A stretch of 64,000 nucleotides of DNA from Escherichia coli (GTDB lineage Bacteria; Pseudomonadota; Gammaproteobacteria; Enterobacterales; Enterobacteriaceae), in NCBI RefSeq assembly GCF_045037415.1, contig NZ_CP173438.1. One strand, given 5' to 3'. Shown piece by piece: positions 33,001-36,000 of this stretch; the first letter of the stretch is position 1; every line of letters begins with the position of its first letter. The position numbers were made by a program.

Positions 33001-36000
33001 CATACGTTGCAGTTTCGCAACCAGCGCCTTCAGCCGGTTGATTTCGGAAGCATAAGCCGCCACCCGCTGTGAGAGCAGGCGGTTGTATTCAGCCATCTGG
33101 CGGATGGTGTCCTGTTGCGTCTGCAACAGTGCCCGCAGGCGGGCGTTCTCATGAGCAAGTGAGGTGTCCATATCCTCACTTTACAACGGGTTATATGCGG
33201 ATTCCAGCGCGTTCCGTTCGTTTCGGGTGCTTCCAGTTGATACCTTCAAGAAGCATGGATAACTGAGCCGGAGTAAGGTGCACCTTGCCGTCACGGGTGA
33301 CTGGCCAGACGAAGCGGCCCCGCTCCAGGCGTTTGGTGAAGAGGCACAGTCCGTCACTGTCAGCCCACAACACTTTTATCTGGTCACCCCGGCGTCCGCG
33401 GAAGATGAACAGGTGTCCGGAGAACGGGTCATCCTTCAGGACGTTCTGAACTTTTGATGCCAGGCCGTTAAAGCCATTTCGCATATCGGTGATACCTGCA
33501 ACCAGCCAGATACGCGAACCTGCAGGGAGAGATATCATCAGTGGCTGCTCCCTTTTATTTCGCGGATAAGTGTCTGTAATAACGCCGGCGTCAGTTTACC
33601 TTTAAGCCTGAGAGTTCCGGCCGGCAGAACCAGCTCACAACACAGACTGTCGGACGGTGTATTTATCTGCTCTGGTTCCTGTGCGGGGGCCGGGATTTTA
33701 TTATCCGGCTCCGGCGTTAACGTCACGGGAAGCAGTGCCGGCATATTTTTTCCGGAAGGCAGCAGGCCACCTTTCCGGTATTGATGGCGCCAGTTGAAGA
33801 GCAGGTTATCGTTGATTCCGTTTTCCCGGGCGATCTGCGCCACACAGGCTCCGGGCTGCAGTGACTGCTCCACTAAGGCGATTTTAAACTCATAAGGGAA
33901 GTTGGGCCGCCGGGGACGTTTTTTTACCACGGGGGCTTCGGATATAACGGTGCTTTCAGGACGTACGACTGGTACCGTGGAAAATTGTCCGTAAAGGCAG
34001 GCATCAAGTTCCTGCTCCGACATGCCTGCGGGCAAAGGCCACGAAAGGCCAGCTCTCCGAAAGCGCACGAACATACTACAAACTGTTGATTTTGGTACAC
34101 CCAGGCGACGCCCGGCCACAACCCGGGGTAAATGTTCTTCAAAGTGAAGACGTAAAGCTTCAGTGATCCAGGTCCGGTGTTTCATACGATAGTGTCCATT
34201 AAAAATGATGGACATTATTTTTGTAGAGCCGGAGGAAACAGACCAGACGGTTTAAATGAGCCGGTTACTCATTGACGCCATTTTCACGTGCAATCTGTGC
34301 AACACAAGCTCCAGGTTGTGATGCCAGTTCCACCATACGAAGTTTGAATTCATTCGAATAGTTTTTACGAGGTTCTTTTCGCCAGTCCTGTAATTCCATA
34401 CTTAGATGTCCGTCTATATCAGATGGGCGTCTAAGTTACCAATTCTCGTCTGATGGCTACATACGGCGGTCAGTTTACGCTTACGCCACTGAAATGAAGA
34501 ATTCAGAGAGACTGAATGATATGTCGCACCTTCAGTGAATAGTGTAAAAACTGGGATATTCTCATCCGGGATTACCCACTCATACTCAATGCGTAACTTT
34601 AGTGCGGCCCCCACAGGTAAGAGCCGGACACATTCGTTGTGTATGCTGCAGAATCGGTAACCGGAGGCCCTGCGGTCCTTAACTCAGTGTCTTGTGTTGC
34701 TCATTTGCCACAAAGTCCTGGTACGCCTGCTCAATCATTTCATTCAGCAGTTTTTTTGGGAGGACACCACGACTTCGGGCAATACTTTCAAGCTGTTTGT
34801 GGATTTTTCCGGACAGTTTCAGCGGGACGGAACCATCAGCACGTTCATCACGCCTTTTTTGTTGCTCCCGGGCACTTTTCAGCTCATCAAGAAGAATCGC
34901 TTTATGCTGAATCCTGGGGGCCTGGAAGGAGGCCTGCGTAAACTTCGCTCTGTTCCGTCTGGGATTACTTTCCAGTAAAAACTGTACCTGTTGCTCATTC
35001 CAGCCTTCCCAGTTATCAAACGTGGCGCAGGCGAACCAGTATTTCTGCTCCGGGGTAAGGGGATTCAGCGGGGTTCCCACACACCGGACCTGCATGGCGT
35101 TCCATAACCAGTCACACTGTTCACTGTCCCTGCTGTCCACCCACGAAAAGGGGGAGGGGTAATCATTGTTTATGCTGGCCCATTCAGAGAATACTGAGTT
35201 GATAATCGTCCTCGTAGCCTCTGGTCCGGATTTCAGCAGGTAACTGGAGCAGAACCATATAATTTCACGGTAGATATTATCCGGATGCACGGTGCGCATC
35301 GGCTTTTCTCTGGGACCGGCAATCTTCGGTTGCGATGGAAAACCCATGGCAAACCGCAGATGTTCCGGGGGCATTCCTGAACGTTTTTCAGGAATGGGTG
35401 TGAGTCCTGCGTTTCTGGTCTTTTCCGCTTGTCCGGTATTGCCTCCGGCCGGAGTGTTGTCGGGAGTATCTTCCGGAGGCGAGGTGTTTTCATTAGTGGG
35501 GGGAACAACAATAGAACTGTCCATCTCCGGAATGGGGTGAGGGGCATAATCACTGTGGTAGCCCGGGGAAAGCGTTAAGTCCCGAAGGGTGACATCAGGT
35601 TCCGGGCAGTGAGTGCCACCGGGAGTGAACGGGAGTTGTTGCTTTTGGGGGAAAAATGTATTGTGAATGCGGGTATACAGCCGGAACAGAAAAAAATAAG
35701 ATGCCCGTGGTTCTTTTTTTAACCACTTTGTATATTCCTCTATGGCACCGAGCTGTTGTTTGTGCCGTTTTACAGCATCGATATACGGACAGCTGGTGCA
35801 GATATCATCCAGTTCCTTTCCCACAATACACCTCACCTGCTCTTCCCACATTTGCAGATTTTAAGAAAGCAAACAAAAACCTCCGTACATGATGTACAGA
35901 ATGTACAGAACAATCTATCAGGTACTGGCGTCAGAAGAGCTCCGGGCCGCCTGCATTTTCCGGAATGCGCCGGTTATGAAAAACCGGAAATTCAGTCTCT

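Follow-up and report, generated by a model that had tools for sequence, protein, structure and literature searches.

A widespread, uncharacterised backbone gene of CP4-type islands with a predicted C-terminal ribbon-helix-helix domain and a conserved upstream array of 11-bp repeats

The 64,000-nt stretch of Escherichia coli DNA considered here (contig NZ_CP173438.1 of assembly GCF_045037415.1; its full length is henceforth the window) carries on its minus strand a gene annotated solely as coding for a hypothetical protein (Table 1). As the initial annotation of this DNA had described, IS66-family insertion sequence (IS) genes adjoin it downstream, and upstream there are about 1.4 kb without annotated genes, followed by an IS100 element. 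That annotation also reported an open reading frame (ORF) for 390 residues; an ORF scan confirms that the frame is uninterrupted from 34679 to 35851, but the protein itself is shorter, having 381 residues counted from a GTG codon at 35824. We place the start at this GTG because it is preceded by a Shine-Dalgarno sequence, because variant islands (L006 and L009) have a TGA directly after the ATG at 35851 and a frame-breaking 5-nt indel between the ATG and the GTG, because the N-termini of homologues line up with the GTG position in the family alignment, and because RefSeq annotates the same start; inspection of the sequence revealed no Shine-Dalgarno sequence before the ATG. Residue positions are given throughout in the 390-residue (ATG-start) numbering. 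The further claim that the gene has no neighbours on its strand does not hold to the letter: the IS66-family genes share its strand, and native backbone genes of the same orientation continue past the inserted DNA.

Far from being an orphan, as had been supposed, the protein has homologues in 63 cluster representatives recovered by an exhaustive homology search, none of them with a name or a domain, and the cluster to which its exact 381-residue sequence belongs has 4,098 members, every one labelled hypothetical or uncharacterized. Homology searches placed E. coli variants at 72-100% identity to the query, relatives from Citrobacter, Cronobacter, Serratia, Hafnia and Enterobacter at 26-39%, and more remote relatives on further contigs at 17-30%, with the tryptophan residues still invariant in the latter; a related-locus search using a narrower family alignment reached three species only. 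The 2.9-kb locus is covered to at least 80% in 1,944 of 5,426 complete E. coli genomes. The gene is chromosomal in E. coli, and the occurrence of the family on 3 of 72,556 plasmids and on none of 50,697 phages led us to reject a plasmid or phage origin. The query protein has no match in Pfam, NCBIfam or PADLOC and non-significant ones only in PHROGs; searches of PDB sequences with the whole protein or the whole-family profile returned nothing significant, a profile search of a 5.8-billion-protein database found no named relative, and a literature search for the accession WP_001296206.1 found no paper mentioning it. We found neither a second copy in the window nor a paralogue in the CP4-57 element of strain K-12. 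Among E. coli variants the ratio of non-synonymous to synonymous substitution rates (dN/dS) is 0.26 on the core domain and 0.5-0.6 overall. The gene is real and widespread, its core is under purifying selection, and it is uncharacterised.

The family belongs to the conserved backbone of CP4-type (AlpA / Gp2-like / YeeP) integrative islands, and the conserved position among CP4-type backbone genes in many loci agrees with the suggestion of the initial annotation that the gene is left over from the original backbone of its island. The gene order is maintained in at least 12 loci from different genera. Upstream lies a module that comprises AlpA and a YagK/YfjJ (inovirus Gp2-like) protein, in many cases together with zinc-ribbon proteins. 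In E. coli this module has AlpA in the same orientation as the family gene, whereas elsewhere it is transcribed divergently; the intergenic gap that separates it from the family gene spans 1.6 kb in E. coli and 410-800 bp in the other loci. The immediate divergent neighbour is the Gp2-like gene in five loci and AlpA in three. Long forms of the family (316-390 residues) are followed at a distance of 83-168 nt by a YeeP/YfjP-type P-loop GTPase of 287-291 residues, an Era/dynamin-like MMR_HSR1 protein by its Pfam match, which adjoins the family gene in all nine intact long-form loci and is itself succeeded by DUF932, antirestriction, RadC, DUF987, CbeA/CbtA and DUF4942 genes. Short forms (288-310 residues) have a convergent tyrosine integrase in place of the GTPase. 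The family thus occupies a position among AlpA, YagK/YfjJ, the YeeP-type GTPase, DUF932, antirestriction, RadC and CbeA/CbtA genes. A further protein of 200 residues (40089-40691 in the window), without a Pfam match, is a constant companion of AlpA in enterobacterial islands and is encoded by a further unnamed backbone gene.

The family alignment divides the protein into four regions: a conserved N-terminal motif, a hypervariable middle, a well-conserved C-terminal half and a ribbon-helix-helix (RHH)-like tail. AlphaFold2 (AF2), supplied with this alignment, modelled the protein with a predicted template modelling score (pTM) of 0.69 and with 190 residues at a predicted local distance difference test score (pLDDT) of at least 90. 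The N-terminal motif lies in a predicted hairpin of helices 24-46 and 48-66 (pLDDT 84-96) with the nearly invariant residues W43 and R49. The linker that follows is modelled as disordered over about residues 67-160, cannot be aligned between genera, has 42-60% nucleotide identity among E. coli variants and is the fastest-evolving region in them (dS 0.51, dN 0.29-0.34). The C-terminal half contains the invariant residues W224, W237, W248 and D279, and its tryptophan-rich helical core has no recognisable relative in fold searches. The N-terminal cysteine motif that had been singled out earlier does not hold up as a feature of the family: the sole CxxC (C18, C21) is conserved in E. coli variants, absent from other genera and located in a region of low confidence (pLDDT 54-62), and C8 falls upstream of the true GTG start. 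We accordingly rejected a zinc-binding motif, as there is no conserved set of Cys/His ligands and the region is modelled with low confidence.

An RHH-like pattern had also been noted at the C-terminus, and here the profile searches and structure predictions agree with the initial annotation. AF2 predicts an extended segment at 340-347 and helices at 348-361 and 365-389, that is, the strand-helix-helix topology of about 45 residues. When a tail-only family profile was run against PDB sequences, RHH proteins made up 12 of the top 14 matches, among them MatP from three species (E-values 0.0087-0.09), HP0222, two CopG proteins, two CopG-family regulators, ORF56, 56B and MazE7; apart from the best MatP, eleven RHH proteins match at E-values of 0.05-0.6. 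Pfam searches with family members gave RepB-RCR_reg for five of them (best E-value 2e-4) and RHH_1 and RHH_7 for one each. A single-chain AF2 model of a tail dimer repeats the pattern E8-10/H14-27/H31-48 in both copies at a pLDDT of about 80-87, forms an intertwined dimer with a two-stranded antiparallel sheet, and best matches single-chain Arc, TraY and AvtR at sequence identities of 6-12%. These results support the assignment of the tail as an RHH domain at the level of the models, so that a predicted structure lacking the RHH fold, which the initial annotation had named as grounds for refutation, is not what the modelling gave. The fusion of this tail to a tryptophan-rich helical domain without a known relative constitutes a new domain architecture.

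Among natural sequences, MatP is the best significant match to the tail profile; the match takes in the basic segment before the strand, and MatP likewise has a helical domain followed by the RHH. However, the two helical domains do not superpose (Foldseek E-value 8.5, TM-score 0.26), the family protein ends right after helix B and has no C-terminal coiled coil, and the candidate site described below is an array of direct repeats rather than a matS palindrome. We consequently reject membership in the MatP family, which combines a four-helix bundle, an RHH and a coiled coil; the RHH and the preceding basic segment alone match.

We then examined the intergenic region upstream of the family gene, in which all 14 non-redundant loci studied (4,658 nt for the motif test) have arrays of two to six units of 11 bp. 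The units pair a yTAyG core with an A/T-rich spacer, and ACC often precedes them; in the window the six units alone occupy 36354-36419 and are in register with the arrays of the 13 other loci. Self-matches of 5-mers at a lag of 11 number 57, where dinucleotide shuffles give 8.8±3.7 (z 12.9); lags 22, 33 and 44 show harmonics, and lags 10 and 12 have near-background values. A single-base lag-11 scan, which places the array first in the window and at or near the top in five loci, was only partly discriminating as a control, and we turned instead to a test of motif and spacing. In this test YTAY-N7-YTAY is found 28 times and in all 14 loci, where the remainder of those loci predicts 1.0 (28-fold), and the spacing controls N5, N6, N8 and N9 give 2-4 matches. 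Seven loci fetched after the hypothesis had been stated, some of them related to each other, all have the motif, with 13 matches against about 0.4 expected at the background rate of the motif test. If the spacers are required to be A/T-rich, no second such site occurs in the window or in most of the 13-21-kb loci. There is one phased array per island, always in the sense of the family gene and always adjoining it, even where AlpA and the Gp2-like gene are kilobases away, as in E. coli.

IHF recognises the consensus TAAC-N3-ATTGAT-W. In seven of the 14 loci (L004, L010, L014, L016, L017, L018 and L020; 0.34 expected) an exact copy of this box precedes the first unit by a constant 38-39 nt and in the same orientation; the box is absent at the array in the E. 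coli lineage, in Citrobacter and in some short forms among these loci. In one of the seven (L018, Enterobacter sp. EA-1) the family gene is frameshifted into fragments at 5959-6733, and the array and IHF box ahead of it can still be made out.

The E. coli array is embedded in a highly conserved non-coding block. The whole upstream gap, which had been taken for decayed DNA, is instead 78-81% homologous to the corresponding gap in variant islands, and the block within it (about 36190-36600) is 90-100% identical to them, exceeding much of the adjacent gene in conservation. We found it in 2,090 of 5,426 E. coli genomes, with identity never below 90%, and annotations of it are very rare. An Rfam search of the block without a match and the lack of an RNA-structure signal (fold z 0.13) led us to reject a structured RNA or a known RNA family; a small ORF of 69/86 residues (36234-36494) was likewise rejected, because variants have it frameshifted or without its stop. 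The conservation of the block is thus best explained by constraint at the level of DNA, because there is no Rfam match and no RNA-structure signal and the internal ORF is broken in variants. A sigma-70-like candidate promoter with 10 of 12 consensus positions falls in a stretch of 95-100% conservation; when the loci were inspected by eye for such a promoter at a constant position with respect to the arrays, no consistent -10 element was seen, and we propose the promoter for E. coli only. The leader between array and gene (35825-36353) has two terminator-like hairpins on the gene strand (36153-36170 and 35881-35901), which could reflect attenuation or a separate short transcript. It also has two adjacent 13-nt direct repeats 14 bp apart (36039-36065; in gene sense TAAATACAGTGAG and TAAATACACAGAG), about 215-240 nt upstream of the start, which are kept in variant islands and have a period unlike that of the main array.

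Table 1. Positions of the family gene, its upstream elements and related features in the window
Feature	Coordinates	Strand	Basis or remark
Family protein, coding sequence	34679-35824	-	381 aa, GTG start; stop codon 34679-34681; RefSeq WP_001296206.1, 'hypothetical protein'
Nine-codon 5' extension from ATG 35851	35825-35851	-	Outside the protein
Shine-Dalgarno sequence GGTGAGG	35831-35837	-	6 nt before the GTG start
N-terminal helical hairpin, residues 24-66	35654-35782	-	WLKKxPRAxxFFLF motif conserved
Variable Pro/Thr/Glu/Asn-rich linker, residues 67-189	35285-35653	-	Predicted disordered; pLDDT 38-66
Trp-rich all-helical core, residues 190-338	34838-35284	-	Motifs PSPFSW, CxWLW, ATFDNWxGW, HKxxLLDELKxAWxQ
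C-terminal ribbon-helix-helix domain (predicted)	34682-34837	-	Basic arm, strand VPLKL, helix A 348-361, helix B 365-389
Hyper-conserved non-coding block	36190-36600	-	411 nt; holds the promoter-like site and the array
ACC and six tandem 11-bp units	36354-36422	-	CTACGAAATTC CTATGAAAAAC GATTGAAAAAA ATATCAAATTC GATTCGTTTTT ATATGCTTTTT; candidate operator or nucleoprotein assembly site
Sigma-70-like candidate promoter TTGACA-16-TACGAT (10/12)	36467-36494	-	Consensus scan; about 45 nt upstream of the array
YeeP-type GTPase remnant, 157-aa ORF	22721-23194	-	In-frame deletion of residues 66-207 (G-domain core)
Old IS21-family remnants (partial IstB/IstA) in the upstream gap	36951-37260	-	RefSeq pseudogenes
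IS100 (istA 37349-38371, istB 38368-39063)	37349-39063	+	ORFs and RefSeq
AlpA-family regulator of the same backbone	40785-40991	-	Pfam Phage_AlpA, E 9.5e-7
YagK/YfjJ (inovirus Gp2-like) protein of the same backbone	43963-44532	+	Pfam YagK_YfjJ_C, E 2e-47; REP_ORF2-G2P, E 1e-5

Insertions have rearranged the backbone in the window. IS100 splits the upstream region of the family gene from the 200-residue gene and AlpA, and homology to variant islands reaches to about 37111 (L006 and L008) or 37253 (L009); because it covers much of the IS21-family remnants, the sequence comparison suggests that these predate the insertion of IS100. A 74-nt stretch by the IS100 end (37263-37336) is 85% identical to positions 2785-2858 of L003, just upstream of an OLD-family nuclease gene in a Citrobacter island, and may represent an IS21-family terminal sequence. 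On the other side, IS66-family genes (31600-34215) lie directly downstream on the same strand, along with an N-terminal fragment of TnpA (34265-34399); two IS66-family elements stand in tandem at 29276-34399, where the reference strain THO-003 has one IS66 copy. A 66-residue ORF downstream of the gene (34414-34614) yielded no match. The GTPase is reduced to a remnant 11.5 kb from the family gene, with two IS66-family copies and an iron-uptake operon in between; in BLASTP comparison with the GTPase of L006, residues 1-65 are 95% and residues 208-290 are 90% identical, and Pfam gives weak P-loop matches.

We propose, at roughly even odds (about 0.5), that the family protein is a sequence-specific DNA-binding RHH protein of the island backbone that coats the 11-bp array and controls its own gene and the backbone operon. 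RHH dimers bind short subsites via their sheet and often coat tandem repeats cooperatively; ParG, on short core boxes set apart by AT-rich spacers (PMC3130281), and ParR, on 11-bp direct repeats (PMC9426499), provide the precedent for the binding proposed here. By this proposal the family protein would dimerise through its C-terminal RHH domain; several dimers would probably sit side by side on the tandem units upstream of their own gene, and in many lineages the IHF-type bend site 38-39 nt before the array would join the nucleoprotein complex. The complex would control the family gene together with the operon that follows it (the GTPase, DUF932, antirestriction, RadC and CbeA/CbtA), and the tryptophan-rich domain and the N-terminal hairpin may serve as the effector, oligomerisation or partner-binding part. 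The binder of the array would thus be the family protein and not the product of a neighbour, and the outcome would be transcriptional control. We favour this reading, while regarding it as unproven, because the array is strictly linked to the family gene, even in E. coli.

Several points weigh against it. The RHH sequence matches are individually marginal, the best being at E 0.0087 to PDB, though coherent together, and the single-chain AF2 construct forces the two tails close together. The single-base scan puts the array first in about five of 13 loci and misses loci with two or three units, and the p-values are nominal because the motif was defined after half of the data had been seen. The array lies 530-595 nt from the start codon in E. 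coli as against 50-175 nt elsewhere, with the two terminator-like hairpins in between, and direct control of the gene's own promoter is less obvious in E. coli because of this distance and the hairpins. Furthermore, AlpA or the Gp2-like protein could be the binder, because the array lies in a shared regulatory region. Finally, we infer from sequence the binding of the array by the family protein, and the promoter rests on a consensus match. The same holds for the role as a regulator or partitioning-type protein raised by the initial annotation, which we infer along with DNA binding by the protein.

The most serious competitor, which we consider possible though clearly the less probable, supposes that the divergently encoded Gp2-like (rolling-circle Rep-like) protein uses the array as an iteron or origin-type site, or that AlpA binds it, and that the RHH protein binds elsewhere as a repressor akin to CopG and the RepB regulators and thereby sets the level of a replication or excision module. 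RepB binds three 11-bp direct repeats at the origin of pMV158, and phased direct repeats are the targets of excisionase/AlpA-type proteins. The immediate divergent placement of the Gp2-like gene in five loci and of AlpA in three would suit such a role, as would the five family members matching RepB-RCR_reg, a regulator of rolling-circle plasmid replication, and the IHF-type box by the array, which is typical of origins and recombination sites. The family resembles the CopG/RepB-RCR_reg regulators in having an RHH and in lying beside a rolling-circle Rep-like gene; unlike CopG-type proteins, which have 45-80 residues and are co-transcribed with rep, it is large and divergent from the Rep-like gene, and the query itself is without a Pfam match. 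Yet the array is always proximal to the family gene and in its sense, and in E. coli it stays with that gene while AlpA and the Gp2-like gene are 1.6-4 kb off and in another orientation. Moreover, we identified no nick-site hairpin at the array, and we know of no Rep activity for YagK/YfjJ proteins.

By analogy with plasmid segregation, the array, the RHH protein and the YeeP-type GTPase might instead form a partition-like cassette that positions or stabilises the excised circular island, a reading that we regard as unlikely. ParR proteins typically have an RHH and recognise direct repeats, that of R1 requiring at least two 11-bp repeats (PMC9426499), and one ParG dimer binds each short core box, the boxes being split by AT-rich spacers in arrays that serve as both autoregulatory operator and centromere (PMC3130281). 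Like ParG with parH-OF of TP228 and ParR with parC of R1, the family combines an RHH bearing a basic flexible arm before the strand with tandem direct repeats directly upstream of the operon and an adjacent NTPase gene, the last 83-168 nt downstream in every intact long-form locus. However, ParR and ParG have about 70-120 residues, whereas the family protein is 5-8 times larger and carries its RHH behind an unrelated region of about 330 residues. Similarly, the neighbouring NTPase is Era/dynamin-like, unlike ParA, ParM and known segregation NTPases, and it is missing from the short forms. The carrier is a chromosomal island and not a plasmid, as the plasmid and phage counts given above also indicate, and there is no family membership at the sequence level. 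In the window the GTPase is internally deleted, yet the family gene is intact in thousands of genomes. In light of its size, the type of NTPase and the lack of an autonomously replicating carrier, we rejected classification of the protein as a plasmid partition adaptor. A related and equally speculative possibility, which we likewise hold to be improbable, is that the IHF box, array, RHH protein and GTPase make up a GTPase-driven maintenance module of excised CP4-type islands, centromere- or origin-like, in which the tryptophan-rich domain would act as an adaptor recruiting the GTPase or the Gp2-like nickase. The pairing of an RHH protein with IHF is also seen with TraY at oriT and PY of the F plasmid, but no relaxase or conjugation genes are present at the family loci, and TraY is a tandem RHH in one chain whereas the family protein has a single RHH that must dimerise.

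It is still more doubtful that the RHH tail serves for autoregulation or dimerisation alone and that the main task of the protein lies elsewhere, for example in an antitoxin-like, anti-defence or defence-modulating function of the tryptophan-rich domain. HicB-type antitoxins carry a C-terminal RHH, toxin-antitoxin, antirestriction and defence genes abound in the islands, and the core domain is without a known fold relative. Nevertheless, no toxin partner is conserved beside the gene, and PADLOC finds nothing. The PHROG match to HicB-like proteins (E 0.41) is not significant and covers only the tail, and as no locus examined has a HicA-like neighbour, we rejected a HicB-type antitoxin. The notion of a spurious or decaying frame between IS elements, to which the bare 'hypothetical' annotation, the flanking IS elements and the degraded partner GTPase might point and which the initial annotation had tied to a lack of homologues, is refuted by homologues in several genera with invariant residues, the confident AF2 model, purifying selection on the core and intact copies in thousands of genomes.

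The neighbours of the family (integrase, AlpA, inovirus Gp2-like, RadC, YqaJ and DUF932) also recur in CP4-57 and in tmRNA-integrated defence islands of Pseudomonas, as far as the portions of the account of the latter on which we draw describe them (PMC12595487); an RHH core gene is not named in those portions, nor did a text search of the paper turn up any mention of an RHH, and the CP4-57 of K-12 is without the family gene. Few accessory elements of E. coli and its relatives are as common as CP4-type islands, which carry Ag43, CbtA/CbeA toxin-antitoxin, antirestriction, iron-uptake and phage-defence cargo, while the regulation of their backbone and the replication and maintenance of their excised form are poorly understood. 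The gene described here is present in over a third of complete E. coli genomes without a name, a domain model or a structure. If the GTPase-driven maintenance module were real, it would represent a new class of segregation or replication-control system. The pairing of the gene with a defined and conserved cis-element, one array in each island, joined in half of the loci examined by an IHF-type site at a fixed position, offers a testable handle on how these islands are controlled.

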